Source: a virus (Duplodnaviria; Caudoviricetes). From it: a stretch of 57,994 nt of DNA. The notes under the pieces were generated by a model. It had not been told where the DNA came from and did not search any database. It saw only the letters and a program-made list of their open reading frames with translations. Positions 10,804 to 53,284 of the stretch are shown here, piece after piece; position 1 is the stretch's first letter, and each line of letters begins with the position of its first letter. Where the stretch lies: positions 1-57,994 of the IMG/VR virus record IMGVR_UViG_3300044971_003295. One strand, written 5' to 3'. A program made the translations under genes and the position numbers.

Positions 10804-10804
10804 C

Positions 10805-37504: not shown

Positions 37505-37510
37505 AAAAGA

Positions 37511-37672: not shown

Positions 37673-37936
37673 ATGCTTTCACCACTAGAAAAATACCCAG
37701 ACCAATCGCTAACAGAACTATTGCCACAATGGTTATGGGGAATTACCATAAAGAATTACAAAGACAAAATTGTAAAACGAGTTCTATGGCAAGACGGAAG
37801 TATTACGCTTACTTTCTGGGAACGACCAGAACTGCGAACCTACCAATACGAACACACAAACACAATGGACTTTCCAACAACAGCCGAGTATGTCGCTTGG
37901 TTGCCAACACTAGAAAATTGGAACGGAGTAAAGTAA
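37673..37936 (+). CDS. Hypothetical early protein
   Basis: TTGCCA-18-TATAAT promoter; GAGAGG RBS. Confidence 0.65.
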   Translation: MLSPLEKYPDQSLTELLPQWLWGITIKNYKDKIVKRVLWQDGSITLTFWERPELRTYQYEHTNTMDFPTTAEYVAWLPTLENWNGVK

Positions 37937-38160
37937 TGGGATACAGCAACTACCCCGAGGGGTCAATGATGGGGTCAGGCATTTATTCAGTAGAAGTTGA
38001 GTATGATGAGTTCTTCTGCGAAAATTGCGAAAAGACCAACGAAGAGGGAACAACCTCAACTGATGATTGGGGCAACTACATTGTTGAGTGCGAGTTCTGT
38101 AATTACACGCACAAGGAGAGTAGCCTGAAACAAGACCGAGACGACTACTACCAAGATTAG
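37936..38160 (+). CDS. Acidic Zn-ribbon protein
   Basis: TAATG overlap; CENC...CEFC. Confidence 0.65.
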   Translation: MGYSNYPEGSMMGSGIYSVEVEYDEFFCENCEKTNEEGTTSTDDWGNYIVECEFCNYTHKESSLKQDRDDYYQD

Positions 38161-38357
38161 TCAAACAACCCGAGCAAGTTGTAAAACTGCTCACCACGCC
38201 TCGGGCGGAAAAATAAAAAATTTTTGCTGCTACGCAGCAAAAAATAAAAAATAAAAGCCTCATTTATAAAATGAACCCGCCGACCCCGACTTGCTAATGT
38301 CGCCCAAGTGTGTTTAGATTGTAGTGTGGAACAACCCCCACAAATGAGGAGAACAAA

Positions 38358-38801
38358 ATGTCGGAAACTAACTACAACCCAGACTTCCTAACCGAAGACC
38401 AAATCCGTATCAACTTGCTACAAGAGCAAGCAACAGCACAGGCAACAGAGTTGTCGAACACCATTGACCGCCTAAAATCAAAGACACAGCGAGTAAGCGA
38501 CCTCAATGATGAAAAGTATCGTGCCTTTGAGATTATCAAAGACGCAATCGAAAGCGACGACATTGAGGCTGACGCTGATTGGCTCAAAGAAGTTGCCGAG
38601 GTATTCAGTTGGGAACTCAAACGAGAAGTAAATGTGAGGTTCACAATCACAGGAACGGCTAGTGTAAGTCTGCCTTACGGCAAGGAACTAAGCGACTTCT
38701 CTTTCAGTTCGTCAGATGTTTCGATTGATTGTGATGGCTGGAACAATGATGCCGAGGTATCTGTCGAAGACCACCAACTCGAAGACATAGACGAAGAGTA
38801 A
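38358..38801 (+). CDS. Cassette gene: acidic coiled-coil protein
   Basis: Promoter plus GAGGAG RBS. Confidence 0.75.
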   Translation: MSETNYNPDFLTEDQIRINLLQEQATAQATELSNTIDRLKSKTQRVSDLNDEKYRAFEIIKDAIESDDIEADADWLKEVAEVFSWELKREVNVRFTITGTASVSLPYGKELSDFSFSSSDVSIDCDGWNNDAEVSVEDHQLEDIDEE

Positions 38802-39007
38802 ACCTGCGACCTGAGCAAGTCCTAAAACTGCTCAACAAACACCGCCGCGAAAAATAAAAAATTTTACGGGGCTACGCCCCGTAAAAATAAAAATCAAAAT
38901 CTTCATTTATAAATGAACACGCCGACCCCCGACTTGACTTATGTTGCGTTGTGTGGTTTGATTATAGAGTAGGGCAAATCGACAATCCTACAAAGGAGAT
39001 GGTTGCT

Positions 39008-39355
39008 ATGAGCAACGACAACAACGAGGGTGTAAAGCCCGACAACATTTCAGACAGCCCTGAAATTGTTGTTATCACCAGCACCAAAGTTCGCAAGGCT
39101 CACGCCGACTTTGTTCAGGCAAAGTTAGACGAGAACAACGCAAAGGAACGCAAGGCAAAAGCCGAGGCAATTCTTCGTGAGGCTCTCGGTGAGTTCGGCA
39201 AAGTTGGATACTTTGGCAAGACCAAAGCGTTCAGCCTTGTATCAAGCAAGAACACCAGCGTCAAGCGTGATGTTCTAGAAGAAAAATACCCTGTCGCTTT
39301 CGCAGACGAAGAAGTGTGGAACATCACTCCTTACGACTACATACGCACAGCGTAG
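39008..39355 (+). CDS. Cassette gene: hypothetical protein
   Basis: Promoter plus AAGGAG RBS. Confidence 0.75.
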   Translation: MSNDNNEGVKPDNISDSPEIVVITSTKVRKAHADFVQAKLDENNAKERKAKAEAILREALGEFGKVGYFGKTKAFSLVSSKNTSVKRDVLEEKYPVAFADEEVWNITPYDYIRTA

Positions 39356-39679
39356 TTCTTCACAACCTAAGCAAGTTGTAAAAAGGCTTACCTTGTTAGG
39401 TTGGGTAGGTGGTAGGTGTGTTCTGTGAGGCACACCTATCACCGCCGCCGAAAAATAAAAAATTTCCGCTACGCGGAAATAAAAATAAATTTTCCGCTAC
39501 GCGGAAAAATAAAAAAAATAAATTTCCTCGTTAGCGGGGCTACGCCCCGCGACCGAGGAAATAAAAAATAAAATCAAAACCATCATTTATAAAAATGACG
39601 CCGCCGACCCCGTTTGCGTATCGTTGCGTTTTGTGGTTAGATTATAGTGTGAGGACAATCTCACAAGAAACGAGGAAAA

Positions 39680-40021
39680 ATGTCGGAAAAGGTTATCATC
39701 ACAATCCAAATGGACGCTCAGGAAGTCTGGTCTAATGTGCTAGGTTCTGCTTGGGAAGATTGGGATTGGTGGGAAAAAATCAAATACAGCGAAGGTTCTG
39801 ATTGGGATAAGGTAGGCGAAATTACGCTTTCGATTACCGACCCAAATGACGAGGAAAAGGTTATTACCAAAACCCTCGGCGTTCAGGATTTGGCAAAGGC
39901 TTACGCCGAGTTAGCCTCTAAGAACTACGGCGGAACAAATCTAGACATACACGACCTAGACGCTGTGTATGGCGATTGCGTCTTACAGCAAGCAGTTCTC
40001 GGTGATGTTGTCTATGGATAA
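39680..40021 (+). CDS. Cassette gene: acidic phage protein (DA..GD..LQ....G.VVYG)
   Basis: Promoter plus AAACGAGG RBS. Confidence 0.75.
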   Translation: MSEKVIITIQMDAQEVWSNVLGSAWEDWDWWEKIKYSEGSDWDKVGEITLSITDPNDEEKVITKTLGVQDLAKAYAELASKNYGGTNLDIHDLDAVYGDCVLQQAVLGDVVYG

Positions 40022-40129
40022 CACTCGACAATCGTTGAGGAAGATAGCCCGAGTGTTCTACGGAATAGGAAACTTTTTTATGTCCGTAGAACACAGGGTT
40101 TATCTGAAACAACGCAGAAAGGAAAAGTA

Positions 40130-40504
40130 ATGAAAACGAGTTGGGATACAAACCGCAAAAAGAACCTAATTCCGAATTACAAGATTGACGAAAAACTAAA
40201 AACCTTTGAGAGTTTTGAGAATTACAACAGAACTATCACCGCTGTTCGTAATGGCTCTCTCTACTCAATCACTCATTGGGATACAGTAATTCTGAATTAT
40301 GATGTTGATAACTCAGAAATCTTGTTCTTCCGGTCTTACTACATCAGCAACACAACAAGTAAATTGGTTGGCAGACTTATCCGAGCATTTCCGCAAGGAA
40401 CTTTTGATAGACTGCTAGAACGGCAACGACCACAAGACCGCTCACGCCTAATGCGTATGCGTAAAGGCAGTAGCAACCAACAGCCAGAAATCATTTACGC
40501 CTAA
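40130..40504 (+). CDS. Cassette gene: hypothetical protein
   Basis: GAAAGG RBS; Y.I..W.T.I...S.TTSK motif. Confidence 0.7.
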   Translation: MKTSWDTNRKKNLIPNYKIDEKLKTFESFENYNRTITAVRNGSLYSITHWDTVILNYDVDNSEILFFRSYYISNTTSKLVGRLIRAFPQGTFDRLLERQRPQDRSRLMRMRKGSSNQQPEIIYA

Positions 40505-40675
40505 CATTTGCCCTCACCGCAAGGTGGGGGCATTTGGCGTTCCAAATAAAAAATAAAAAATAAAATCAAAAGCCTCATTTAGAAAAAGACACCGCCAGCC
40601 CCGAGTTGCGAAATGTCGTAGGTTCGTGAGAAGATTATTATGCGAGTATCTCTCGCAGAAAACGAGGTGATTACT

Positions 40676-40924
40676 ATGGCAGAAATGCCCAATCTACACA
40701 TCTGGACTTCTAACCACACTTACTTACGAGATGGCACAAATCAAGTAAGTATGAGCGTTAGAACCTACATCAAAAACCTTGATGATGACTACAACAACAG
40801 CACAGCAATTTCCGAGGCACAAGTTATTTTTAGCGTTGAGGGATTTGCTAGGTTTGTCGGAGAGATGAACGAACATCTCGAAAAAATCAAGGCTGAGGTA
40901 GCCGAGGTTTCCGAAGTAGCGTAG
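40676..40924 (+). CDS. Cassette gene: hypothetical protein
   Basis: Promoter plus GAGGTG RBS. Confidence 0.7.
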   Translation: MAEMPNLHIWTSNHTYLRDGTNQVSMSVRTYIKNLDDDYNNSTAISEAQVIFSVEGFARFVGEMNEHLEKIKAEVAEVSEVA

Positions 40925-41151
40925 CCAGACCCAAGCCCACCCGAAAGGGTGGGTGAGGGGTCGGCAAAAATAAAAAATTTTGCGCTACGCGCAAAAATAA
41001 AAAAAAATAGAATTACACCGCTGCGCGGTGAAATTCTAAATAAAAAATAAAAACCTTCATTTATAAAATGAACGCCGTCGCCCCGTTTGCGTAATGTCGC
41101 CATTTCCGATAAACTAGAACTACGGAGTGTGTCCGTAGAAAACGAGGAGTA

Positions 41152-41373
41152 ATGAGTTGTAAGTGTGAAGACCGCCCCGCTTGCGGTTGCCTTAGCGAAA
41201 GCGGATACTACGATTACGCCGACCCACACGACTACGCAGACGAACAGCGTGAAAAGATGTTCTCTGACGAAGACGGCTGTGAAATGTGCGGTGTTCGCTG
41301 GAACAGGCAAGACAACGAAGACGACATAACTCAGGGTTTCCACGCTGAGTGTGCCGACACTATCGTAATCTAA
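41152..41373 (+). CDS. Cassette gene: Cys-rich acidic protein (CEDRPACGC)
   Basis: Promoter plus GAGGAG RBS. Confidence 0.7.
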   Translation: MSCKCEDRPACGCLSESGYYDYADPHDYADEQREKMFSDEDGCEMCGVRWNRQDNEDDITQGFHAECADTIVI

Positions 41374-41434
41374 CAAAAACCTAACCTGAGTAAGTTATCA
41401 AACTGCTCACCCAACAAAAATGAGAGGAAACAAA

Positions 41435-41599
41435 GTGCCAAAATACAGAATAACCTCAACTATTCAGTTTGAGTTTGAGGGAGAGTTTGCCAACGAAGCA
41501 GAAGCAGAAAAGTTTGCTGGCAACTACGACAACCTACAATACTCAATGCCTGTCGAACTAGACATTGAGGAACTAGAAGACGAGGAAGAAGATGAGTGA
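41435..41599 (+). CDS. Cassette gene: very acidic 54-aa protein
   Basis: GAGAGG RBS, GTG start, MPKYRITSTI...DEEEDE. Confidence 0.65.
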   Translation: MPKYRITSTIQFEFEGEFANEAEAEKFAGNYDNLQYSMPVELDIEELEDEEEDE

Positions 41600-41843
41600 A
41601 ACCAGAGAAAACCCATACTTGTCTTACTCGCTAGATAGTCTAGGAACTATCGCACAGCAATACGCTCTAATGCTTGGTGGTGGGCAAACCACGCTAGGCA
41701 ACGGCGACAATCTAGGCGAGGCATACGAACAAGTATGCGAGGCAATCGAAAGTCGTCAGGAAACGGATTATTGTAAGCACGGAAACTTCCGTTGGACAGA
41801 CCACGATATTCCTTGCGGTGCTTGCGAGTTTGGCGAGGACTAA
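41592..41843 (+). CDS. Cassette gene: protein with C.H...C..C motif
   Basis: Coupled ORF. Confidence 0.65.
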   Translation: MSETRENPYLSYSLDSLGTIAQQYALMLGGGQTTLGNGDNLGEAYEQVCEAIESRQETDYCKHGNFRWTDHDIPCGACEFGED

Positions 41844-42034
41844 CCAGCAACCAGATACCAGCCGAAAGGTTGGTATTTGGTGTTGCGAAAAATAAAAAAT
41901 TTGCTTCGCAAATAAAAAATAAAAATCAAAAGCACAGATAAAAAAGCATCGCCAGCCCGCCGCTTGACTTTCCAAGCGTTTCGTAGTTAGATAGTAATGT
42001 GAGGACTACACTCACAGAAAACGAGGATAGTAGT

Positions 42035-42319
42035 ATGTGCGACAACCCTGAACACAACCACGAAATACCTGAAATGAGCGAGGCAGAAGTAGAAAAACTG
42101 TTTATGCTCGCAGGTGCGTTGGTGCTAGGTATTCAGTATTCCTTTGACCCGTCAGTAAATTTCCAAGAAGCACCAGAGGAAATTATAGAAATGGGGAAAT
42201 GGGAAATGATGGTCAGAACCATAAGTATCAAAAACGAACTAGGTGAACTGATAGACACAATCCTAGAACGGCAAAGCGACAACAAATTTGAGAACATAAT
42301 CAAAGACTTTGATTTGTAA
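42035..42319 (+). CDS. Cassette gene: hypothetical protein
   Basis: Promoter plus AAACGAGG RBS. Confidence 0.7.
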   Translation: MCDNPEHNHEIPEMSEAEVEKLFMLAGALVLGIQYSFDPSVNFQEAPEEIIEMGKWEMMVRTISIKNELGELIDTILERQSDNKFENIIKDFDL

Positions 42320-42381
42320 GAGCACGACCTAAGCAAGTCGCAAAAAGGCTTACCCACCTAAACGAGAGGAACAGATAACTA

Positions 42382-42723
42382 ATGGCAGACTTTTACGGCG
42401 TATCAGTTTTGCTACCCCACGCAAAGGCTATTGCTTGGGATACTTGCCACAAGATTTATATCTTGATGGACAACGAACAAGTAATAAAAATGCGTGAATA
42501 CGGCTACGGCGACGAAAATGACCCAGACAGCCTAATCACCGCAGAGCAAATGACCAAGCAAGAAATGTTAGACACTATCCAAAAGTGGTATAACAGCAGT
42601 TGCTCATTACGCTTTATCAACGCAGTATCAACTGTGCCAGAAGGCACAGACCCAAATGAAGGGTTCGAAGTTATTATCGGTCAATTTGACGACGAGGACG
42701 ACGACACCGACGACGAGTATTAG
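42382..42723 (+). CDS. Cassette gene: hypothetical protein (AWDTCHKIY...W...C.LRFI)
   Basis: GAGAGG RBS. Confidence 0.7.
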   Translation: MADFYGVSVLLPHAKAIAWDTCHKIYILMDNEQVIKMREYGYGDENDPDSLITAEQMTKQEMLDTIQKWYNSSCSLRFINAVSTVPEGTDPNEGFEVIIGQFDDEDDDTDDEY

Positions 42724-42944
42724 ACCCCCCTCGCAACCTGAGCAAGTTGATAAACTGCTCACTAAACACACCGCCGCAAAAATAAAAAATTGCGCTCCGC
42801 GCAAAAAATAAAATTGCCGCTGCGCGGCAAAATAAAAATCAAAACCAGCATTTATAAAATGCAGGCCGTCGCCCTCGTTTGACGGACACGTCCGTTTGTG
42901 ACAGACTAGTTATGCGGACACCGTCCGTAGAAATCGAGGACAAA

Positions 42945-43388
42945 TTGGAAACTGAAACAGAGAGAGTCTGTGTCTTAGAAATCAACTCAGACTGCACTTG
43001 CGAAGAGTATGACGAAGAAACAGGCGAAAGCAAAGTAGACGACAACGGCTATCCCGTTATGTCTAATTATTGCTACGGTTGCTACGATGACGACCTAGTG
43101 GCCTTGAAGTATGACGTATTACCTGAGTGGCTTGGAGCAAACGGTTGGGATACCGACACCAGAGTTACAATCAGAGGCTCAAGGATGGGTTGGACAAACG
43201 ATAGCGGGTATCTAACTACCACAATCGAATCAGCAGAAAAATTGCTTGATAAGTTGCGTATCAACGGCGACTACACCTTGCGATTCTATCGCAAGGGTAA
43301 GAACCTTGAAGTTGTAAGGTCAAGCCACGACGAACTTGGAGCGTTGTTTGAGTTTGAGTTAGCCGAAGAAAGTGATGAAGATTACTAA
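42945..43388 (+). CDS. Cassette gene: acidic protein (GW...SG; SHD..G)
   Basis: Promoter, GAGG RBS, TTG start. Confidence 0.7.
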   Translation: METETERVCVLEINSDCTCEEYDEETGESKVDDNGYPVMSNYCYGCYDDDLVALKYDVLPEWLGANGWDTDTRVTIRGSRMGWTNDSGYLTTTIESAEKLLDKLRINGDYTLRFYRKGKNLEVVRSSHDELGALFEFELAEESDEDY

Positions 43389-43584
43389 CAGTAGTCTACC
43401 TAGCCCTGCCGAAAGGCAGGGTTAGGCCACTTGCGGCGGAAAAATAAAAAATGCGCTACGCGCAAAAATAAAAAATAAAAATCAAAAGCTCAATTAGAAA
43501 AGCATCGCCCGCCCGCCGACTTGCGTAATGTTGCCGTTTGTGAAAGAATTGTCTTGCGGGACTATCCGCAGAAACGAGGAAATC

Positions 43585-44052
43585 ATGGGATTAGACATGT
43601 ATCTTTCGGTTCGCAAATACGCTTCGGAGTATTCAGGCGACATACCGAAAGCCGACATCGAACAGGCAATTCGCCTATTCGGTTTCAATCCGTCAGAAAT
43701 GGGTTCGGGCTACACCGCCGCAGAAATCAGACTGACCGCTATCTATTGGCGTAAAGAGAACGCTATTCACAACTGGTTTGTGAAAAATGTTCAAGACGGA
43801 ATAGATGAGTGCCAAAAAGCGATGGTATCAAGAGAGCAACTAGAAAAACTGAAATCGGAGTGTGAGGTTGTTCTAGCCTTTCCAGAGAAAGCAAGTAGTG
43901 TCTTACCGACAGCCAGCGGGTTATTCTTTGGTGGAACGGAGTTTGATGACTGGTATTATGAAGGCATCAAGATAACTCGCGACAAACTCGCTAAGATACT
44001 CACCGACCCGACCTTCAAAGATTGTGAATTTGAATACCAATCTAGTTGGTGA
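43585..44052 (+). CDS. Cassette gene: phage protein (MGLDMYL...YWRK.NAIH.WF type)
   Basis: Recognisable motif; AAACGAGG RBS. Confidence 0.75.
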   Translation: MGLDMYLSVRKYASEYSGDIPKADIEQAIRLFGFNPSEMGSGYTAAEIRLTAIYWRKENAIHNWFVKNVQDGIDECQKAMVSREQLEKLKSECEVVLAFPEKASSVLPTASGLFFGGTEFDDWYYEGIKITRDKLAKILTDPTFKDCEFEYQSSW

Positions 44053-44257
44053 TAACCGCCCTGCCCTCTCTACGGAGAGGGTAGGGTCATTGCCGCGAAA
44101 AATAAAAAATGCGCTTCGCGCAAAAAAATAAAAATTTCGCTGCGCGAAATAAAAGCAAAACCTCAATTAGAAAAGCATCGTCGTTCGCGCCGTTTGACTA
44201 AATCGCCAAACTATGAAAGACTAGTTATGCGAACGCCGTTCGCAGAAACGAGGAAAA

Positions 44258-44626
44258 ATGTCTGAAACAAAGAAAGCAGTTGTTGTTCAGCCGAACGGAA
44301 CTGCCGAAGTTATTGAGTTTACCAGCGATACCGCTCTGGCAACTCTACAAAAAGCAGTAGACGGCTACATCGAACCCGTATCCCTTGACGAGAATTTCGT
44401 TATGTGGGTAAACGAAGAAGGGCTACTACGCAACGACCTAGTATCAAACTATGTCGGAGCAATTCTTTACCAAGAGGTATTCCAAATTCCAAATCCAATC
44501 AACGGCACTATCGTCTTTACAGGCGGAACTGACGAAGAGGGCTACACGCAGGGTCTAACCACCGCACAAGTATTCGCAGCGTTGAGTATGGCGGATGTAG
44601 CCTACAAAGCATCAAACCAGCAATAA
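44258..44626 (+). CDS. Cassette gene: DUF3846-like protein
   Basis: L..LQ.AV.GYIE.V...VNEEG...N...I.G..V..G. Confidence 0.75.
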   Translation: MSETKKAVVVQPNGTAEVIEFTSDTALATLQKAVDGYIEPVSLDENFVMWVNEEGLLRNDLVSNYVGAILYQEVFQIPNPINGTIVFTGGTDEEGYTQGLTTAQVFAALSMADVAYKASNQQ

Positions 44627-44819
44627 GTTTCCCTCGAAATCACCTGAGCAAGTGGCTAAACTGCTCTCTCCTTGCCTTTGGCAAAAATAAAAATTTGCGC
44701 TTCGCGCAAAAATAAAAAATAAAAACACATTTAGAAAAGCAAGCCGCTCGACCCGATTTGCGTTTAGTCGCGTTCTGTGGCAAACTGATTATGCGGACAC
44801 TCCGCAGAAACGAGGAAAA

Positions 44820-45449
44820 ATGTTTATTGTCGAAGACATAAGAACTTGGTTTACGCCCTCAACTATCGACGAGTATCGTAGACTAATAAAACAGCCAACT
44901 CACAAAATAAATAGTGAAGATGAAGTTTGGAACAACTCTCTAAGTCTTTCTCAGTTTGTAGTCTACGGATACCCTAAGCCGAGAGATTACGGACAGGTAA
45001 ACTCAGGCTACCAACGCACTTCCGAGCCTATGAAACTAGGGTTGGTATCGCCAGAAGATTACGAGTGGCAAATTGCCGTAGAAAACTACTACCAATCAAA
45101 CTTGTTCGGTCAATACATACTGAACGATGAGATTAGAGAGCCAAAACTTGCCAAAAGTAAGTATCGCCTACACTACGCTAGGTTGCTACTTCCGTTCAAG
45201 CCCTTCCATTGGTCAAGTAGAGATTATTGGTCAAAAGAAGGCTCTCCGTTTATTCCCTGCTACTACATAGAGCGACTAGACGAAACAGGCAAAAAGGTCA
45301 GGAAATACATAGATTACTTTGCCGTAGACAACGCTTTCGTCTTAGAGCCTACGGGTTGGAACAAATCAGGCAGACGCTCACACACAATCCCCGAAGATTG
45401 GCTGAGTGGCAGACTTGATGGACTAGACGGATACGCCAAATTCGCATAA
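44820..45449 (+). CDS. Cassette gene: hypothetical protein
   Basis: Promoter plus AAACGAGG RBS. Confidence 0.7.
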   Translation: MFIVEDIRTWFTPSTIDEYRRLIKQPTHKINSEDEVWNNSLSLSQFVVYGYPKPRDYGQVNSGYQRTSEPMKLGLVSPEDYEWQIAVENYYQSNLFGQYILNDEIREPKLAKSKYRLHYARLLLPFKPFHWSSRDYWSKEGSPFIPCYYIERLDETGKKVRKYIDYFAVDNAFVLEPTGWNKSGRRSHTIPEDWLSGRLDGLDGYAKFA

Positions 45450-45683
45450 CCCACGCCCTACACCGCAAGGTGTAGGGTTTGGCGTTTGCGGAAAATAAAA
45501 AAAATTCGCTGCGCGAATAAAATAAAAAATAAAAAATCAAAAAACACATTTACAAAAAACACGCCGCGCCCGCCCGTTTGACTTTCACCGCTATCGGTGG
45601 CAAACTATAAATGTAGAGCGGCGGCCTTTCGTTCCCCCCCCCCTGATACCGCCGCTCTACACCTACAAATCGAGAGGAATAAA

Positions 45684-46055
45684 ATGTCGCTAGATTGGAA
45701 CGCGTCAAAAGTCCCAAACATAGATTGGGACAACGAAGATGAGTCAAACCGAGTTGGTCGGTTCGCCTTTGTCTTGATGTTTCTCGGTATCGGTTCGGTA
45801 TCGGAAACCAATGTTGCCGAAGTAATTGTTCGCAACAAAATCCACGAGGCTTTGTTCGGGCCAGCGTATTACTACATAGACGAGGCCACAGGCGTTCGCA
45901 AGAGCGCTTACGACGCCGAGTTTATTCGCAAAATGGTCGGATACAGCACCAATGTTAGCACCGAGCCAAGAGCGAAGTGGCTAAAGCGTATGACCGACAG
46001 CGCAATCGCAGACCAAGTTAGGCAAGCCCCCCAAGCCGAGCCAGCGTTAGTCTAA
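45684..46055 (+). CDS. Cassette gene: hypothetical protein (MSLDW...G..TNV)
   Basis: GAGAGG RBS. Confidence 0.7.
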   Translation: MSLDWNASKVPNIDWDNEDESNRVGRFAFVLMFLGIGSVSETNVAEVIVRNKIHEALFGPAYYYIDEATGVRKSAYDAEFIRKMVGYSTNVSTEPRAKWLKRMTDSAIADQVRQAPQAEPALV

Positions 46056-46112
46056 GCACCAAGACCTGAGTATGTCTAAAACTGCTCACCCACTCCAACA
46101 GCAAGGACAAAA

Positions 46113-46292
46113 ATGCCAAAAAAATCAGTAGTTGATACGAGTGCCAAAGTGTGCGAAATGTGCCTACGAAATCCAGCAAAGGTTGATGTAGTAGTGCCAA
46201 TGGGCTTAGGCGAAAACTACGGCTGGGCTTATTGCGAAATGTCGCTATGCGCCGTATGTGTCGAAAGTCTGCCAGACCTGAAAACCAAATAG
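46113..46292 (+). CDS. Cassette gene: 59-aa CxxC...CxxC protein
   Basis: AAGGA RBS; below the track cutoff. Confidence 0.6.
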   Translation: MPKKSVVDTSAKVCEMCLRNPAKVDVVVPMGLGENYGWAYCEMSLCAVCVESLPDLKTK

Positions 46293-46480
46293 AACCGCAC
46301 CTGAGCAAGTGATAAAACTGCTCGCCTCAAAAAATAAAATAAAAAATTGCGCTCCGCGCAAAATAAAAAATAAAAGCAAAATCCTCATTTAGAAAAGCAT
46401 CGCCGTCGCCGCCGTTTGCGAATGTCAGCGTTATGTGGCAAACTGATAGTGCGGAACAACCCCCGCAGAAATGAGCAATC

Positions 46481-47155
46481 GTGGAAACAGCAACTACCGC
46501 AACACTTGAGGTTCTAAATAAAATGTTCCTCGAAAACACTGGTCGCAGTTTTTTGGACAGTGGCAATGCCTACGGTCGGCACTTTGAACGCCAGCAGTCG
46601 ATTAGTAACGCCGAGCGTGAGCAGGGAAAAACCAGCGTCGATGAATGGGGAAACATCACCGTTCCATTATTCCCAGCAATTTCGGCTGTGGTTGAGTATG
46701 ACCCTGAACTAAATGAACAGTGGAAAAAATTCGATGCCGAACACCCTGACGATTCTTGGCACGATACGATGGGAATGTTCTTAGATGAACTAGGCGTTTC
46801 AAGGACTGGCGACCTTTACAGTGACAGTTTCCGCTACGGGGTCAATTCTTACAACAGCGAAAACTACCTGAGCCAAGATTTCCAAGCCGAGATTTTTGCT
46901 TACGGTTTCGAGATGTATGCCCTGCTTCAGATTCACGGTGGCACTGACATTCGCGGAGGATACACCGCACCCGTAGTGTTCAAGTGCGACTGGGAATCCT
47001 TAGTGACTCTAGGGCAGACAGCGTTCCTGAACTGTGCCGAATGTGATTTTGATTTAGTGATGAATGTTGTTGACGGTATCGTCGAATCAACTGACGACAT
47101 ACCTGACAACTGGGAACTGAAAAACGGTTGCCCACGCTGTAAATCGAAATTCTAA
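46481..47155 (+). CDS. Cassette gene: phage protein (ENTG..FLDSG...GR; QIHGG.D.RGGY..P) with Zn ribbon
   Basis: Promoter, GTG start, enzyme-like conserved motifs. Confidence 0.75.
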   Translation: METATTATLEVLNKMFLENTGRSFLDSGNAYGRHFERQQSISNAEREQGKTSVDEWGNITVPLFPAISAVVEYDPELNEQWKKFDAEHPDDSWHDTMGMFLDELGVSRTGDLYSDSFRYGVNSYNSENYLSQDFQAEIFAYGFEMYALLQIHGGTDIRGGYTAPVVFKCDWESLVTLGQTAFLNCAECDFDLVMNVVDGIVESTDDIPDNWELKNGCPRCKSKF

Positions 47156-47366
47156 CCCCGAACCACCGCCGAGCATTAGACCCCCTAATGCTCGGCGGAA
47201 TCGGCGTTCAAAAATAAAAAAATTCGCTACGCGAATAAAAATAAAAAATAAAAAATAAAATCAAAAGCTCAATTATAAATCGTCGTCGTCGGCCAGGTCG
47301 TTTGACTCGCGACCGCCGATGCGATAGTCTGGTGATGCGGGTCGCCCCCGCAGAAAAGAGTGGAAA

Positions 47367-47798
47367 ATGATTGTACAAATTGTTGAAATGGAGAGAGACG
47401 AAGGTTGCGAGCACTTGGATGATGGCAAGTGCCAGCAGCACCGCATCGTTGGAGAAATCGACACAGACTCAGTGTTCTGGGCCTACGCCGAATTTCTAGA
47501 CAACGGCGAGTGGGTAAGAGATGACGGCGTTGTTTCTTACCAGCGCGACAGCATCGCCGTCCCTAACCTTGAGTATGACCCCGATGTTGCCTTGTTCTTT
47601 GCGGGTCAAGGTTTGGCCAAGGTTGGTGACACCAGAGATTATGACGATTGGGTCAAACTACAGAAACAGGTCAACTGGGAAAATCGAGTTGATGGCGAGT
47701 GCGAGATTTGCCACCACGCCTATCCAGCGAACTGCACTTGCCCGAGCGATGTGGACTGTCCAAATTGCTTAGCAGGCTCAGTCTGCATCTTTCACTAG
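47367..47798 (+). CDS. Cassette gene: Cys-rich protein
   Basis: Promoter; C-terminal CEIC..C.C...CPNC...C..H. Confidence 0.7.
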   Translation: MIVQIVEMERDEGCEHLDDGKCQQHRIVGEIDTDSVFWAYAEFLDNGEWVRDDGVVSYQRDSIAVPNLEYDPDVALFFAGQGLAKVGDTRDYDDWVKLQKQVNWENRVDGECEICHHAYPANCTCPSDVDCPNCLAGSVCIFH

Positions 47799-47852
47799 CA
47801 ACACCGCCTGAGTATGCGGAGAAACTGCTCACCCAACAATAAGGAGAAACTG

Positions 47853-48014
47853 ATGACCAAAAAAGATTATCAACTTATCGCCCAAGCAATCGCTGATACT
47901 TGGTGCGATGCCGCGGCACAACTTGCCATTGCCGAGAACATCGCTAAAGCATTGGCAGACACCAACCCGTTATTTGATAGAGACCGCTTTCTAGCAATGT
48001 GCGGAGTGGCCTGA
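47853..48014 (+). CDS. Cassette gene: small protein (MTKKDY..IA...NP.FD.DRF..CG type)
   Basis: AAGGAG RBS. Confidence 0.7.
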   Translation: MTKKDYQLIAQAIADTWCDAAAQLAIAENIAKALADTNPLFDRDRFLAMCGVA

Positions 48015-48211
48015 ACCACGCCCCAGCCGAAAGGCTGGGGAACAGGCGTTCAAAAAATAAAAATAAAAATAAAAATAAAAATTTACGGCTGCGCCGCAAA
48101 AATAAAAATAAAAGCTCATTTACAAAAAGCACGCGCCGCTCGGTCGTTTGCGTAATGTTGCGTTTCGTGGCAAACTATAAGAGCAGCACCACAACCAAAC
48201 AAGGAGATCAG

Positions 48212-48451
48212 ATGCAAATCACTCACGTAGCAAAGACGGACAGCGGAGATTACACAATTTCTTCGCTACCTTGCCCAAAGTGTTCGGTAGTATTCACCAC
48301 CGAAATCACGGGCGAGCAGTTGTTCAAAATCAACAACAACGCCCTAATTCAAGACATCGGCTTAGACCTTACCGCAGACCAGCGAGAGCAGTTTATCTCA
48401 GGGTATTGCGGAACGTGCTGGGCTGAAGAATTCTTTGGGGATGAGGACTAA
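48212..48451 (+). CDS. Cassette gene: Zn-binding protein (CPKC...RE..ISG.C..CW)
   Basis: AAGGAG RBS. Confidence 0.7.
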   Translation: MQITHVAKTDSGDYTISSLPCPKCSVVFTTEITGEQLFKINNNALIQDIGLDLTADQREQFISGYCGTCWAEEFFGDED

Positions 48452-48573
48452 TGGCACAAGCAGGATACATCAATTGCTCGGGCTGCGGGCGTTTGTTCAG
48501 CGCAGAGAGCAAAGATGAAATGGACTTGCTACTCTCGCACACCTGCGAAGACGAGGAAGGAGAAGAAGAATGA
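48451..48573 (+). CDS. Cassette gene: 40-aa CxxC..H.C peptide
   Basis: TAATG overlap; GAGG RBS. Confidence 0.55.
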   Translation: MAQAGYINCSGCGRLFSAESKDEMDLLLSHTCEDEEGEEE

Positions 48574-48716
48574 ACCCCGAACTCGCGAAAAAATTCGTAG
48601 CAATTCTCAATGCTTACGAAGACCGAGAGATTAGTGCCGAAGAAGCACTAATCCGTATCCAAATCGCCGTAGCCAACGCTAACGAAGATGCGGAACACAA
48701 CGAAATCACTCTCTAA
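48570..48716 (+). CDS. Cassette gene: 48-aa helical peptide
   Basis: ATGA overlap; AAGGAG RBS. Confidence 0.55.
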   Translation: MNPELAKKFVAILNAYEDREISAEEALIRIQIAVANANEDAEHNEITL

Positions 48717-48952
48717 CGCTGCCCGAAGCCCACACCGAAAGGTGTGGGCCTTGGCGTTTGCGAAAAATAAAAAAAAATAAAATTTGCGGCTGCGCCGCAA
48801 AAATAAAAAATAAAACCAAAAGCTCATTTACAAAAGACACGCCGCTCCGCCCGTTTGACTTCCGTTGCCGTATGTGGCAAACTAGTATTGCCAGGCAGTA
48901 AGTAATCCCCCCCCTTTCGTTGCTTACTGCCTGGCCTTATCTAAGGAGATAG

Positions 48953-49135
48953 ATGACCACCGCAACCACCGACAGAATAGAAATGTTGAGCCGAAACTTG
49001 GCCAGACACCAAATCATTATTTCGCTACTAAGCAAAAAACAGAAATGCGATGAAAGCGAAAAACCCTGCGACATTTGCTACGGATTTGATTTAGCAATCA
49101 AACTTGTCCAAGACCAACTAGAACCCGAGAATTAG
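48953..49135 (+). CDS. Cassette gene: hypothetical protein
   Basis: AAGGAG RBS. Confidence 0.65.
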   Translation: MTTATTDRIEMLSRNLARHQIIISLLSKKQKCDESEKPCDICYGFDLAIKLVQDQLEPEN

Positions 49136-49143
49136 GAGAACCA

Positions 49144-49311
49144 ATGATACCTTGCGAAGTGTGCGGAAAGGACACCGCCGACACAGGCGAGCCTTGTGAT
49201 GAGTGTATGAACCCGTCATTCACCAAGCCAGACTTTGGCAGCAGACCTGCTGATGAGTATTTCGCCTACATAAAGAGCGACGCTTACATCGCCTATCTCA
49301 ACAGCAACTAG
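49144..49311 (+). CDS. Cassette gene: 55-aa CxxC...CxxC peptide
   Basis: AGGAG RBS. Confidence 0.55.
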   Translation: MIPCEVCGKDTADTGEPCDECMNPSFTKPDFGSRPADEYFAYIKSDAYIAYLNSN

Positions 49312-49497
49312 CACCGAGCCGCCCTGCCACTTTCGAGTGGCAGGGTTTCGGCTTTGCGGAAAATAAAAATTGCTGCTCCGCAGCAAAAATAAAATTTGCT
49401 GCTCCGCAGCAAAAATAAAAATCTAAAAGCTCATTTATAAAAGACACGCGCCGCTCGGTCGTTTGACTAAGTGCCGTAATTGTGAAAGACTATTCTT

Positions 49498-49683
49498 GGA
49501 CCCAAACGCTGGCTGGTAAAGGCTATGGGCGTTGGCTATGGCGGTCATAGCAATCGGCTTACCAGAGCCGACACAAGATAGCGGAGAGAGTGAATAAAAT
49601 ACCGCTCGCGACCTTAGGCAGTTGCTACCGATTACAAGCCTATAACTGCGTAAGGTGCTAGGGAGAGCAACCCCCTAGCACCG
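49498..49683 (+). ncRNA. Candidate structured RNA carried as cassette cargo or leader
   Basis: Starts at the predicted TSS; at least five helices and a possible pseudoknot; no ORF with an RBS. Confidence 0.5.
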
Positions 49684-49711
49684 AACTCCAACCCAACAAC
49701 AAGGAGATACA

Positions 49712-49954
49712 ATGCCAGAAACACAAATACTCGCAAGGTATGAAGAAGACGGGCTTGCCTGTGAGATTACTTGCGAAAACGGAGAGTATTGGTTTGTAGA
49801 TACTTACCGCACCACCGAAGATAACGAGATGGTATGGCTCAACAATACCGGCTCGCTTACCACCTACGCCGAAGCGTTCGACGCCTTCCGTCTAGACCTA
49901 GACTGCTTCTTCGGCAAGGAGTTTCACCCAACAATGCTAGTCCGCAACAAGTAG
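49712..49954 (+). CDS. Cassette gene: hypothetical protein
   Basis: AAGGAG RBS. Confidence 0.65.
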   Translation: MPETQILARYEEDGLACEITCENGEYWFVDTYRTTEDNEMVWLNNTGSLTTYAEAFDAFRLDLDCFFGKEFHPTMLVRNK

Positions 49955-50153
49955 CAACCACCGACCCCTGCCGAAAGGCAGGGTGTTCGGCGTTTCAAAT
50001 AAAAAATTTGCGGCTGCGCCGCAAAAAATAAAAAGCGGCTACGCCGCAAAATCAAAAGCTCATTTACAAAAGACACGCCGCTCCCCCGATTTGCGAAGTG
50101 TGCCAAATTATGTAATGATTAGATGGGGAACTATCAAAAACAAGGAGAACCTG

Positions 50154-50420
50154 ATGAACAATCAACCACTCAGCGCCACAATCAACAAAGCCCGAGCAAT
50201 CACTTATGTTGCCAGCAACAACCCTGATGCCTTCACCACCGCTCAACTAATCCAGATTATCAAATACGCTAACGCTGTCCTTCACACCACCAGCATAGCC
50301 TTATACCCAGACGGCTTGCCGAAAACGCCTGCTGATGTGAAAGACCAACTAGAGTCAGTAATTGCCAGAGAAGTAGCAATCTTTGAGAGAGAAGTTAGAG
50401 CAACTCTGCCTAAATTCTAA
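50154..50420 (+). CDS. Cassette gene: hypothetical protein
   Basis: AAGGAG RBS. Confidence 0.65.
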   Translation: MNNQPLSATINKARAITYVASNNPDAFTTAQLIQIIKYANAVLHTTSIALYPDGLPKTPADVKDQLESVIAREVAIFEREVRATLPKF

Positions 50421-50548
50421 CCCCGAACTGCCCTGCCTAGTCCCCCCACTAGGCAGGGTTTCGGCGTGAAAAAAATTTGCCGCTGCGCGGCAAAAAAATT
50501 TGCCGCTGCGCGGCAAAAATAATTTTGCGGCTGCGCCGCAAATAAAAT

Positions 50549-50797
50549 CGCTCAACGCGCTTCGCTTGGCCGCCGCGATCTTCCCCGGGTCGATAGCTGA
50601 ACGCTCCTTCGTCGCTTTTCAGCCTCCCCGGGTTCAGACGCTGCTGCCTTCGCTTCGGCGTTTCGCGAATAAAAATGCCGCTTTGCTTCGCTCAGCTGCT
50701 TAGGTCTCCACGGCCGGCGGGCAATCCCGGCTTCGCTGCGCTCATCGGGATGCACCTTGGCCGGGTCGAACCACGCAGCCTCCGCTCGCGACGCGGC
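50549..50797. other. GC-rich non-coding insert rich in GCTTCGC/GCTGCGC mini-hairpins
   Basis: Interrupts one repeat unit between its hairpins and its CATTTA box. Confidence 0.6.
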
Positions 50798-50926
50798 AAA
50801 ATAAAAAATAAAATCTAAATCTAAATCTCATTTACAAAAGACACGCTGCTCCGCCCGTTTGACTAACGTGCCGTTTCGTGATTGACTTAGTGTGCGGGCA
50901 AGCCCGCAGAAAACGAGGTGATGTAA

Positions 50927-51139
50927 ATGAGTTTCGGAATTGATGTTCGGTATCCCGATGTCTTTGTCCAACTTACGGGCGAAGATGGGAACTCCGTTTC
51001 CATTATGGGTCGGGTTGCTAAGGCACTAAGAGATGCTGATGTGCCTAAGGAAGAAATTGACGAATACTACGCTCAATCAATGAGCGGAGATTACGACAAT
51101 CTTCTACGCACCGCTGCCGAGTGGGTATCGGTAGGGTAA
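50927..51139 (+). CDS. Cassette gene: small protein (V.L.G.DGN...I.G.V..AL...SGDY..LL type)
   Basis: Recognisable motif; GAGGTG RBS. Confidence 0.75.
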   Translation: MSFGIDVRYPDVFVQLTGEDGNSVSIMGRVAKALRDADVPKEEIDEYYAQSMSGDYDNLLRTAAEWVSVG

Positions 51140-51198
51140 TCTCCAACACCTGAGCAAGTGTCTAAAAGGCTCACAACCCTAACAAGAAAAGAAAAGAG

Positions 51199-51402
51199 AT
51201 GAAAATGGGCGGACATAAATCCGAACTCTTCACCGCCGATAGCCCAGGCTATCGAGTGCGGTTCAGAGAATACGCCAAAAATTGGTGGCTATACGAAGAC
51301 AGCAAAGGCAAGGAGTGGGTCAAGAAATTTGACGACCCCAGCTCAGCCAAATCGTTTGCCAACAATCTAATCACGACTAATCTGATTTTGTCTGGTTTGT
51401 AG
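51199..51402 (+). CDS. Cassette gene: hypothetical protein
   Basis: ORF following a pseudoknot copy. Confidence 0.55.
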   Translation: MKMGGHKSELFTADSPGYRVRFREYAKNWWLYEDSKGKEWVKKFDDPSSAKSFANNLITTNLILSGL

Positions 51403-51584
51403 CGAGTGCTGAGAAAGGCGACCTTTGCGGTCGCCTTTCTTGGCGTTTCGCACAAATAAAAAATAAAACCAAAAACCTCATTTACAAAGGACACGCCGTC
51501 CCCGCCGAATTGACTAAGTGCCGCAATTGTGGCAAACTGAAAGAGCAACACCTAACCCAAGCACCGCTAACAAAGGAAGACAAA

Positions 51585-51791
51585 ATGCCTGAATACAAAC
51601 TAACAGCAGCAAAAAAGAACCAAATCGCTTCGGTATTCTTCTCAGCACCATCAAACCAAGACGCAATTCTAAAAGCAGTATTTCGTATCTTAGACAACGC
51701 TCGCCTAGACCCTAATAGTTGTTGGGCAATTGGCAAGGTCACCCTAAGCGACAGCAAAGGCGAAACAATTTCAGAAATTCCAGCCAAATAG
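51585..51791 (+). CDS. Cassette gene: hypothetical protein
   Basis: AAGGA RBS. Confidence 0.65.
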   Translation: MPEYKLTAAKKNQIASVFFSAPSNQDAILKAVFRILDNARLDPNSCWAIGKVTLSDSKGETISEIPAK

Positions 51792-52047
51792 GAAAGCACC
51801 GACCCCTGCCGAAAGGCAGGGTTAGGTGCGTTGGCGGAAAATAAAAAATTTGCGGCTGCGCCGCAAAAAATAAAAAATGCGGCTGCGCCGCAAAAGCAAA
51901 AGCTTCATTTAGAAAAGACACGCGCCGCCCGCCGTTTGCGTTTGTCTGCCGTCTATGGCAGACTTAGACCATAACAGAATACCTAGCAGGGTAGGCAACC
52001 CCCCCGCCTGCCCTGCTAGGACAATCCAACTAACTAGGAGAAAAAAA

Positions 52048-52284
52048 ATGTTATTTACCGCAATTATGCTATGTGCCTTGACGCTAGCAACTTTCGTTTC
52101 TAATTCGGTTATCAGCACACTATTTGCCGAAGCAATCCACTTGGGAAGTGCCGAAGAAATTTGGTTGTTCGGCAGTATTTGGTTTGTGTTGCTTATCAAT
52201 TCCGTAGTCTTAGCAGGTGTGGCAATCAAAGAAATTATGGACTACAACGACAACCGCCCACGCTATCCACTCCGCAACAGATAA
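52048..52284 (+). CDS. Cassette gene: two-TM membrane protein
   Basis: AGGAG RBS; two hydrophobic helices. Confidence 0.65.
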   Translation: MLFTAIMLCALTLATFVSNSVISTLFAEAIHLGSAEEIWLFGSIWFVLLINSVVLAGVAIKEIMDYNDNRPRYPLRNR

Positions 52285-52487
52285 CCCCGAAATGCCCTGC
52301 CTAGTTTACGCTAGGCAGGGTTTCGGCGTTGCGGATCAAAAATAAAAATGCGGCTGCGCCGCAAAAATAAAAAATAAAACCAAAAGCTCATTTACAAAAG
52401 ACACGCCGCCCCCGTTGTTTGCGTTTGTCGCTATTCTATGTTTAGATAGTAGTGCGGAACTACCCGCCTAATTAGGAGATGATGTAA

Positions 52488-52802
52488 GTGCCAGAACTAG
52501 AAAGCAAATTCACTTGGTCCGTATTCTCAGACAACAACTGCCAATGCGGACAAGAACACTCTTTCGAGACAGACAAACTGCCAGACATTAGCCAGCCCGT
52601 AGTTATCCAAGATGTTTGGAATTGCGGAGAAGTTTGGTATAACTTCTTCTCAAACGGGGATAACGAATTCTACGCAGACCCGAAACACGAACTCTGCCCC
52701 GTCTGCCAGACGAACGCTATGCCGAAAGACCAAGCGAGTTGGTGTGATGAGTGTGTAGCCTTAGACGAACGCCGAGCCGAGCGAGCGTTATACGGAGAAT
52801 AA
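52488..52802 (+). CDS. Cassette gene: Cys-rich protein
   Basis: AGGAG RBS; CQC..H, CPVC..CDEC. Confidence 0.65.
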   Translation: MPELESKFTWSVFSDNNCQCGQEHSFETDKLPDISQPVVIQDVWNCGEVWYNFFSNGDNEFYADPKHELCPVCQTNAMPKDQASWCDECVALDERRAERALYGE

Positions 52803-53025
52803 CCACCAAGCCACTTGCCTAGTATCTACCCCCCTAGATACTAGGCAAGTTTGGCGGCGGAAAATAAAAAATTTGCGGCTGCGCCGCAAAATAAAACCAA
52901 AAATAAAAAATAAAATCAAAAGCACCATTAGAAAAGCCACGCCGCTCCCGCCGTTTGCGTTTGTCTGCCGTCTATGGCAGACTTAGAGCGTAGCACCACC
53001 ACACCCTAAATCAAAGGAAATCACA

Positions 53026-53157
53026 ATGCCAGAGTATCTTGGACTATGCCAAACCTGCGCCGAACGACACCCTGAACACCGACCAGCCGTTGCTATCTAT
53101 TGGACACTTCTAGGTGGTATGTGTGCCGAACACTTCGCAACTTATGAACAAAACTAA
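53026..53157 (+). CDS. Cassette gene: 43-aa CxxC..C..H peptide
   Basis: AAGGA RBS. Confidence 0.55.
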   Translation: MPEYLGLCQTCAERHPEHRPAVAIYWTLLGGMCAEHFATYEQN

Positions 53158-53284
53158 ATAACACCGAGCCACTCACCGAGTATCTACCCCCCCCCCAGAT
53201 ACTCGGTGAGTTTCGGCGGCGGAAAATAAAAAAAATTTTTTCCGCTTACGCGGAAAAATAAATTTTGCTGCTCCGCAGCAAAAT

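Follow-up and report, generated by a model that had tools for sequence, protein, structure and literature searches.

Only one biological role is well studied for small hairpins that extrude from double-stranded DNA at physiological supercoiling, that of the early promoters of N4-like phages. In the N4 promoters, inverted repeats surround a GC-rich heptamer whose centre is at -11; these promoters form cruciforms at a superhelical density of -0.035 with Mg2+ and extrude in a gyrase-dependent manner in vivo, the virion RNA polymerase (vRNAP) contacts the central loop base together with bases of the stem, and an artificial promoter with the N4 P1 hairpin in its spacer was switched off by gyrase-driven extrusion (PMC4496689). 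LUZ7 has nine early start sites, most of them with hairpins and starting at a G 13-14 nt downstream of the hairpin centre, and two of its strong hairpin promoters stand in tandem 33 nt apart (PMC9163698). As DNA, the d(GCGNAGC) mini-hairpin of Hirao and colleagues greatly exceeds the RNA counterparts in stability, and GCGNNAGC is the other mini-hairpin motif named in the same source (PMC13037366). The promoter-early stem-loops (PeSLs) of T4-like phages are composites of terminator and promoter between small open reading frames (ORFs), as described by Comeau, Arbiol and Krisch (PMC4122927). Here we describe a 15-kb gene array in which the heptamer of the N4 hairpins occurs 31 times. It lies in a contig of 57,994 bp from a caudovirus (IMG/VR record IMGVR_UViG_3300044971_003295), hereafter the window, which belongs to an unrelated phage of Actinobacteria for which no N4-type polymerase was found.

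We defined a mini-hairpin as a GC-TNC-GC core that extends outward into a perfect stem of at least 4 bp around a 3-nt loop. The first-pass annotation of the window had claimed about 31 such strand-specific hairpins and none in the other orientation. We indeed found 31, all on the plus strand, from 38,221-38,243 through 53,262-53,284 and with stems of 4-11 bp; its five example coordinates were all exact, and a scan of the window for the opposite orientation (GC-GNA-GC on the plus strand) returned no perfect hairpin. Dinucleotide-preserving shuffles of 38,001-53,500 (n = 300) gave a mean of 0.34 hairpins on the plus strand (largest 3) and 0.36 on the minus strand (largest 2). The strand count of the bare heptamer, which had been suggested as a check, agreed: GCTNCGC occurs 55 times in the window, 47 times on the plus and 8 times on the minus strand (100 dinucleotide shuffles: mean 27.6, largest 48). 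The core is present in 31 of 31 hairpins and reads GC-GNA-GC on the minus strand, where all 31 have the heptamer, the two-pair stem and the GNA loop of the d(GCGNAGC) motif. N is any of the four bases (loops TGC 14, TAC 9, TCC 5 and TTC 3), and 24 of the 31 hairpin sequences are distinct. The 12-nt flanks of the hairpins are 75% A, and AAAATAAAA occurs 66 times on the plus strand, every copy within 37,572-53,280, and once on the minus strand. Among GC-containing triloop hairpins with stems of at least 5 bp, C-TNC-G accounts for 29 of 38 in 38,001-53,500 versus 1 of 19 in the rest of the window. A 32nd element near the end of the series has a 4-nt loop, TTAC on the plus and GTAA on the minus strand; it matches the GCGNNAGC motif, and we count it in favour of a structure formed in DNA.

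The likeness to N4 promoters that had been noticed in the core holds for the real N4 sequences. On the coding strand of N4 (NC_008720), P1 reads GTTGC-TTC-GCAAC, with its loop at position 95 and 59 nt before gp1, and P2 reads AAGAAGC-TCC-GCTTCTT, with its loop at 564 and 22 nt before gp2. The heptamer, the 3-nt loop, the stem size and the strand relative to the genes are thus the same in N4 and in the window.

The hairpins occupy a fixed place in a repeated arrangement. Between 37.5 and 53.3 kb, small plus-strand genes with Shine-Dalgarno (SD) sequences are separated by 24 copies of an intergenic cassette. After the upstream stop codon comes a strong plus-strand terminator hairpin with a T-rich tail of the type GGGTTTGGCGTTTGCGG and then AAAAATAAAAAA; zero to three mini-hairpins split by A-tracts follow, with a further A-tract and a CATTTAnAAAAG box (type CTCATTTAnAAAAG), and the cassette ends with a promoter (TTGCGT or TTGACT, N17, then CAAACT, CAGACT, AAGACT or TAGATT), a 5' stem-loop and an SD sequence. 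A simple pattern for sigma-A-type promoters (TTGnnn-N16-18-nAnnnT) is found in 21 of the 24 cassettes. Twenty cassettes carry 28 of the hairpins, the other three forming a triple array at 50,476-50,542, and four cassettes carry none. The centre of the promoter-nearest hairpin and the -35 word downstream of it are 50-84 nt apart, and tandem hairpins stand 23-43 nt apart in some spacers. The 62-nt regions upstream of the A-tracts fold with a mean of -26.2 kcal/mol, 19 of the 24 at -20 or better. These neighbouring plus-strand hairpins had been described as mostly GAAA- or GCAA-looped, which is true of nine of the 24 (GAAA 7, GCAA 2), the others having TTCG, TACG, TTAC, poly-C and further loops. 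The phage gene for a single-stranded DNA-binding protein (SSB), said to lie just upstream of the array, is there and is recognised by Pfam.

The mini-hairpins pair differently from the terminators beside them. Defined as they are by perfect stems and folded with only 4 nt of flank added, they contain one G-T among 224 pairs, versus 32 G-U among 388 pairs, spread over 14 of 19 regions, in the plus-strand terminators of the same cassettes. Read on the minus strand, 30 of 31 stems have a T-run after them and 26 of 31 have one before them, and A-richness thus flanks the stems on both sides. Folded as RNA, the hairpins reach a mean of -8.4 kcal/mol, with nine at -5.4 or weaker. ViennaRNA energies with RNA and DNA parameters were tried on both strands as a discriminator and set aside, the values for the two strands being identical; because the parameter sets carry no GNA bonus, energy models leave both the choice between DNA and RNA and the choice of strand undecided. 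Rfam gave nothing on the hairpins, either at gathering thresholds over the whole window or at E up to 1 on 37,500-54,500.

Comparison with the closest relative, G004, reveals which parts of the hairpin are held constant. This contig, collinear with the window and 99% identical in its terminase large subunit (TerL), has 22 such hairpins, none of them in the opposite orientation. The alignment covers 22 of the 31 window hairpins and leaves out nine; of those covered, 19 are present in G004 and three units are absent. Among the 19 orthologues the middle loop base has changed in eight, the loop T and C at none of 38 positions, and three stems carry changes on both sides that preserve pairing. By our arithmetic, eight of eight loop changes would fall on the middle position with P about 1.5 in 10,000 if they were random over the three positions. 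The free N, the fixed T and C and the both-sided stem changes point to selection on the core. One orthologue looks replaced by the sequence of another copy. Genes and cassettes have also been gained and lost between the two, with breaks in the hairpin/A-tract repeats; for example, 46,371-47,250 is absent from G004.

The cassette plan and the core, though not the flanks, recur in four more lineages, whose TerL is 88-90% identical. In G002 the order is GAAATTGAAATT, a stem with a TCC loop and AAACAGAATAA, with one hairpin per cassette; G005 has TTC loops; and in G001 two to four short mini-hairpins follow one another, with A/C-rich flanks (TAAAACCGTAAAACC type). The ten cassette hairpins of G003 comprise six with TNC loops and four identical copies of GGCGGC-GAA-GCCGCC, in which the loop is flipped to GAA on the coding strand and the flanks are unchanged, so that the strict strand specificity originally claimed does not extend to this sister lineage. 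Counted over whole records in TerL orientation, TNC:GNA hairpins number 22:0 in G004, 24:1 in G002 and 22:1 in G001, and 2:4, 1:1 and 5:1 in three relatives without the system, namely Actinomycetia phage DSL-LC01, G006 and G007. At least five lineages retain the heptamer core, and their flanks are no longer recognisably alike. L018 (part of G006) and L024 have the terminator, an A-rich stretch and a TTGACT promoter, with no hairpin in the promoter-upstream stretches printed. Since such outer relatives share the cassette plan without hairpins, the hairpin is, on sequence comparison, a clade-specific addition to an older cassette. A first pattern scan of viral contigs found one true relative and a chance match in an AT-rich contig (L004); with a corrected pattern the scan returned only three already known contigs and no complete genome of a hairpin lineage.

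Some other features follow the same lineages. In G002 (L016, L088) the mini-hairpin is the exact 16-18-nt spacer of a sigma-70-like pair, TTGAA[AT]/CAGAAT, in 18 of 23 cassette hairpins; as a general arrangement this was rejected, since none of the 31 hairpins of the window and none of the 10 of L007 has it. Small CxxC...CxxC zinc-ribbon-like proteins occur in the hairpin clade only among six records compared. One, with its conserved part at about 37,936-38,160, ends 61 nt before the first hairpin, and two paralogues are at 34,700-35,065 and 35,065-35,391. Genes shared by the hairpin lineages and absent from three hairpin-less relatives include those for the first zinc-ribbon protein and for the two paralogues, 39,680-40,021, 50,927-51,139, ThyX and an M23 peptidase; because the hairpin lineages form one clade, this sharing does not tie the genes to the hairpins.

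Table 1. Mini-hairpins and other features of the window. Hairpin rows give the plus strand, as obtained by outward extension of the core; "relative" denotes the closest relative, G004.
Feature	Coordinates	Strand	Details
Mini-hairpin	38221..38243	+	stem 10, loop TAC (GTA on -)
Mini-hairpin	38862..38886	+	stem 11, loop TAC
Mini-hairpin	39462..39480	+	stem 8, loop TAC; unit missing from relative
Mini-hairpin	39490..39508	+	stem 8, loop TAC; relative: TTC and both-sided stem change
Mini-hairpin	39534..39550	+	stem 7, loop TAC; inside longer imperfect palindrome
Mini-hairpin	40978..40996	+	stem 8, loop TAC (relative TTC)
Mini-hairpin	41016..41030	+	stem 6, loop TGC
Mini-hairpin	41899..41913	+	stem 6, loop TTC
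Mini-hairpin	42790..42804	+	stem 6, loop TCC
Mini-hairpin	42814..42830	+	stem 7, loop TGC
Mini-hairpin	43452..43464	+	stem 5, loop TAC
Mini-hairpin	44110..44122	+	stem 5, loop TTC (relative TAC)
Mini-hairpin	44134..44150	+	stem 7, loop TGC; unit missing from relative
Mini-hairpin	44694..44710	+	stem 7, loop TTC
Mini-hairpin	45504..45518	+	stem 6, loop TGC (relative TAC)
Mini-hairpin	46347..46361	+	stem 6, loop TCC (relative TAC); left end of gene-cassette indel
Mini-hairpin	47222..47236	+	stem 6, loop TAC; right end of same indel as at 46347..46361
Mini-hairpin	48086..48096	+	stem 4, loop TGC; 8 pairs with one G-T allowed on -; both-sided stem change vs relative
Mini-hairpin	48783..48801	+	stem 8, loop TGC
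Mini-hairpin	49370..49386	+	stem 7, loop TCC
Mini-hairpin	49395..49413	+	stem 8, loop TCC
Mini-hairpin	50007..50025	+	stem 8, loop TGC; relative: TCC and both-sided stem change
Mini-hairpin	50035..50047	+	stem 5, loop TAC; unit missing from relative
Triple array	50476..50542 (50476-50494, 50499-50517, 50524-50542)	+	stem 8, loop TGC each; precedes GC-rich non-coding element
Mini-hairpin	51849..51867	+	stem 8, loop TGC (relative TTC)
Mini-hairpin	51878..51892	+	stem 6, loop TGC
Mini-hairpin	52349..52363	+	stem 6, loop TGC
Mini-hairpin	52872..52890	+	stem 8, loop TGC
Variant hairpin	53237..53258	+	stem 9, loop TTAC (GTAA on -, GCGNNAGC form)
Mini-hairpin, series end	53262..53284	+	stem 10, loop TCC
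Array of 24 A-tract intergenic cassettes	37572..53290	+	
SSB gene	36941..37420		Pfam SSB, E 1e-17
Collagen-like tail-fibre genes	843..4434	-	
Ribonucleotide reductase	6457..8496		
Phage-borne tmRNA and two tRNA genes	10472..10806; 16648..16721; 16858..16930		tmRNA 157.8 bits, full length
Terminase large subunit (TerL)	56037..57449		

Several further elements were noticed in and around the cassettes. A palindromic box, TTCATTTATAAAATGAA in five cassettes or half-conserved as CTCATTTAnAAAAG, separates the hairpins from the -35 word in most of them (for example at 38,259-38,277, 38,902-38,919 and 41,056-41,073) and resembles the binding site of a dimeric regulator. In five of the 24 cassettes, at about 38,169-38,192 and ahead of the A-tracts at 38,850, 42,778, 44,683 and 46,329, the strong terminator hairpin is replaced by a conserved CCTGAGCAAGTnnnTAAAACTGCTC-type word, which recurs in a distant relative (L024, near 6,930). 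Long hairpins of 5' leaders and terminators have runs of 6-11 C in their loops, near 45,640, 48,920, 52,010, 52,830 and 53,170. Directly after the last mini-hairpin, 53,285-53,360 holds two direct copies of a word of about 31 nt, AAAATGAGCTCGCGCAGCTCGCACTCATTTT, with inverted ends. A GC-rich non-coding stretch at 50,543-50,800, within the gene array and adjoined upstream by the triple hairpin array, is kept in three lineages (L016 5,575-5,845; L007 5,552-5,752). Its consensus fold, from three sequences only, has 39 pairs, eight of them with both-sided changes, and it is possibly a structured RNA or DNA element.

Taken together, we tentatively favour, at somewhat short of an even chance, the view that a cruciform-prone mini-hairpin of the N4 type, acting as DNA, has been inserted in the A-rich spacers of early-gene cassettes that resemble PeSLs. 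It is supported by the fact that the conserved part is the GCGNAGC heptamer with a free N and not the stem, by the near-pure Watson-Crick pairing, by the A-richness on both sides of the stem, and by the flips in G003, which keep GNA on one of the two strands and which a cruciform tolerates. The relatives indicate selection for the G..A positions of the loop and for perfect Watson-Crick pairing in the stems, a pattern that suits a DNA structure better than an RNA structure. Perfect palindromes in near-pure A/T flanks would extrude as small cruciforms under negative supercoiling, and hairpins extruded 50-145 bp upstream of the early promoters would act as a structural signal, either as a local sink or sensor of supercoils or as a landing site for a hairpin- or single-strand-binding protein. 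If all 31 were extruded, 535 bp would absorb about 51 helical turns (535 / 10.5, by our arithmetic). As a side effect, the repeated cassettes are endpoints of the gain and loss of gene cassettes between relatives. The proposal of the first-pass annotation that the hairpins are single-stranded or cruciform signals is thereby retained as far as the invariant heptamer and the selection on loop and stem are concerned; the enzymes it had envisaged for promoter use or recombination were not found in the records searched, strand specificity is not absolute, as the flips in G003 show, and the central base is free.

Other observations weigh against this view. The window, the three hairpin-lineage fragments (36-43% complete) and the complete relatives yielded no hairpin-reading protein. 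Plausible sigma-A-type promoters are present in most cassettes, and the hairpins would therefore not be needed for expression. The element is accessory to judge from the four cassettes and the whole sister lineages that do without it and from its varying copy number. Read on the minus strand, the hairpins of the window have the shape of a textbook terminator. A plain cruciform does not explain the strong orientation bias (31:0, 22:0, 24:1 and 22:1), which may partly reflect descent from one founder, a flip requiring two coordinated changes or a template switch. The argument from DNA stability is taken from the literature, as nearest-neighbour models do not separate the strands.

The terminator shape leads to the alternative that the hairpins are intrinsic terminators for minus-strand transcription, with a GC-rich stem, a GNA loop and then UUUUUUAUUUUU, which together with the plus-strand terminator would make a two-way stop. 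We regard this as rather unlikely. A consensus scan lists nearly all of the hairpins as terminator-like on the minus strand (51 sites in 38,000-54,000 versus 23.1 expected), the minus-strand T-run that follows almost every stem in the window also follows 20 of 22 in G004, a plus-strand T-run follows only one of 31, and the 4-nt variant offers a GNRA loop, GTAA, on the minus strand. However, there are no minus-strand genes in the array or rightward to the contig end, sigma-70-like matches number 7 versus 16.7 in shuffles with only three on the minus strand, and the T-run before the stem is not needed by a terminator. The T-tail is kept in only 3 of 22 hairpins in G001 and 8 of 24 in G002 (6 of 8 in G003) despite the kept heptamer, the RNA folds are weak compared with those of the upstream plus-strand regions, and the fixed G..A, the GC/GC closing pairs and the near-lack of G-U are left unexplained. 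This alternative, already raised in the first-pass annotation, thus describes the window well and two of the sister lineages poorly, and it may be that the window's own lineage recruited the hairpin as an antisense terminator. Were they all antisense terminators, the finding would be ordinary, yet an unusually regular design for two-way termination. A very improbable alternative places the signal in the sense RNA, with the small hairpin in an A-rich read-through transcript serving as a processing or stability site for an RNase. A-rich single strands beside stem-loops are typical RNase E-type sites, and read-through into the hairpins is likely in the five of 24 cassettes where a weak upstream element stands in for the strong terminator. 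In most cassettes, however, the hairpins lie upstream of the promoter and downstream of a strong terminator; moreover, we know of no special RNA property of the UNC triloop that the plus strand would form, the loop flips to GAA in G003, and hardly any G-U pairs occur, in contrast to the RNA hairpins of these cassettes. It is also quite improbable that the hairpins are functionless palindromic repeats that spread by slippage, gene conversion and recombination and provide at most homology for PeSL-like shuffling. The zero to three copies per cassette, the precise presence or absence of single units between close relatives, the gene-cassette indels that end in the repeats, the identical copies and the orthologue apparently replaced by another copy would all fit such repeats, as would the sister lineages without hairpins. 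Short palindromes between direct repeats are deletion-prone, and yet the core has been kept in at least five lineages with diverged flanks; the free N, the fixed T and C and the both-sided stem changes indicate purifying selection on structure rather than neutral copying.

The closest parallel suggests that the hairpins might be single-stranded promoters or priming sites of the N4 type, with the template strand read by a polymerase or primase that escapes sequence searches, for instance a domain of a protein of about 3,200 aa in the relatives or the primase-helicase; we consider this improbable. It agrees with the heptamer, loop size, stem length and strand of N4 P1 and P2, the GC-rich heptamer lying in a template-strand inverted repeat ahead of small genes of the early type. 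The spacing of the tandem copies is comparable to the 33 nt in LUZ7 (PMC9163698), and the SSB gene stands at the head of the array. T-rich flanks on the template strand should bind SSB well, which we also count in its favour. On the other hand, no conserved sequence extends from -17 to +1, no G is found 11-14 nt downstream, the start position in N4-like phages, where there is A-tract only, the stems are free (24 sequences), and so is the central loop base, which the N4 vRNAP contacts; four of the ten cassette hairpins of G003 are flipped. A T7/N4-like RNA polymerase was searched for with four family models (phrog_2206, phrog_2051, phrog_414 and PF00940), and none was found in the 43%-complete window, the fragments G001, G002 and G004 or the large relatives G006-G010; the three PHROG models recover the N4 polymerase genes. 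The other enzymes that the first-pass annotation had proposed to look for were missing as well, with tyrosine recombinase (PF00589) absent from five of five records while the control matched in 14 of 14, and Y1 HUH transposase (PF01797) absent from the same number with a control that matched in six genomes. The relatives do encode, between the portal and capsid-protease genes, an ORF of 3,229-3,289 aa without family assignment (L085 28,738-38,607, equivalent to OQ999401 52,800-62,669; L094 2,135-11,824). As a hidden polymerase, the 3,289-aa ORF of DSL-LC01 was rejected: Pfam gave a sub-threshold ATP-cone only, PHROGs nothing and PDB E of at least 0.2, BLASTP against N4 gp50 gave E of 0.9 or worse, and a crude regular expression for T7-type motifs was unconvincing. 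The protein-atlas leads for the 3,229-aa ORF of G006 were all below 0.9. The giant protein is also present in relatives without hairpins. It would be equally doubtful that hairpin-promoted or hairpin-primed initiation exists here outside the N4-like podoviruses, with an enzyme, DNA-borne or made early, that family models do not recognise; if so, each early gene would have one host-dependent and one host-independent start.

The window is the whole record, a single contig with a CheckV completeness estimate of 43%. Given its gene content, its TerL relatives, this completeness and its lake and freshwater source, it is a fragment of a freshwater actinophage of about 130 kb, without the structural and replication modules. 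The viral contig collection contains 418 relatives of TerL, of which some are on contigs of 113-137 kb; two of these contigs are rated 100% complete. The nearest named phage, DSL-LC01, is of lake origin and has a genome of 129,469 bp, a TerL 77.5% identical and an annotation that includes tape-measure and major tail proteins, i.e. it is long-tailed; other TerL matches are to Microbacterium and Gordonia phages. A megablast of 38,000-46,000 against the phage collection gave zero matches, and a search of sequencing runs found the stretch in lake and freshwater metagenomes. Contigs of the single RNA run break at the repeated A-tracts and yield neither strand, start nor end, and gaps in their coverage carry no information. 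Joints between hairpin positions in DNA runs were discarded as evidence, since most have sides of 20-30 nt and are repeat-end artefacts.

Besides the genes listed in Table 1, the window encodes an NlpC/P60 protein, an M23 peptidase, ThyX, a dNMP kinase and a serine recombinase. The last (12,689-13,378; resolvase domain, E 3.5e-32) is followed by overlapping ORFs at 13,356-13,856 and 13,853-14,371, and a short C5-methylase fragment lies at 14,803-15,399; these may be split genes. The window and the large hairpin-lineage contigs G001, G002 and G004 end about 0.2-0.8 kb past the terminase gene (57,450-57,994 in the window), and other contigs of the lineage extend further, by about 10 kb in L015 and about 2.4 kb in L006. 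Downstream of the terminase gene, L006 has a second hairpin cluster at 10,128-11,067 with C-TTC-G loops and unrelated stems, and L009 has a few hairpins at 11,444-11,523.

In the literature searched, which was not exhaustive, we found no array of this kind described outside N4-like phages. If the hairpins act as DNA, they would provide a natural many-copy system for studying cruciform-prone elements beside bacterial promoters, in supercoil sensing, insulation or protein landing. Among known systems, the single-strand initiation hairpins of the phage G4 origin and of RSF1010 ssiA/RepB' also place a GNA or GNNA mini-hairpin beside an SSB-binding single strand (PMC13037366), but they are one or two origin sites of a single-stranded replicon, whereas the window has 31 intergenic sites in a 15-kb array of a double-stranded phage. 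Like integron attC sites and REP/RAYT elements, the hairpins are co-oriented palindromes conserved in structure and variable in sequence, one per small co-directional gene; unlike them, they are perfect, without extrahelical bases, and the genes have promoters of their own. With intrinsic terminators they share the GC-rich stem and T-run on the minus strand, and they differ in the lack of a minus-strand transcription unit, the unconserved tail, the weak stems, the fixed loop and closing pairs and the T-runs on both sides.

Like N4-type promoters, the hairpins stand upstream of small early genes and, as in LUZ7, sometimes in tandem copies. They are far more numerous, however, with 31 in the window versus 3 in N4 and 9 early start sites in LUZ7; unlike in N4, they have pure A-tract flanks and are followed in each cassette by a sigma-A-type promoter; and unlike N4-like podoviruses, the phage has an actinobacterial host and a long-tailed nearest named relative. 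PeSLs resemble the cassettes themselves in the repetition of a terminator and a sigma-70-type early promoter between small ORFs (24 cassettes, 19 with a strong hairpin and 21 with the promoter pattern) and in the indels and swaps between close relatives that end at the cassettes, as between the window and G004. The window belongs to no T4-like myovirus and differs from these phages in group and host, its nearest named relative being DSL-LC01, with other TerL matches among Microbacterium and Gordonia phages. In the excerpt of PMC4122927, where no additional hairpin of this sort is described, the stem-loop of a PeSL is the terminator itself, whereas the cassettes of the window add, between terminator and promoter, a mini-hairpin with a fixed heptamer and its A-tracts.

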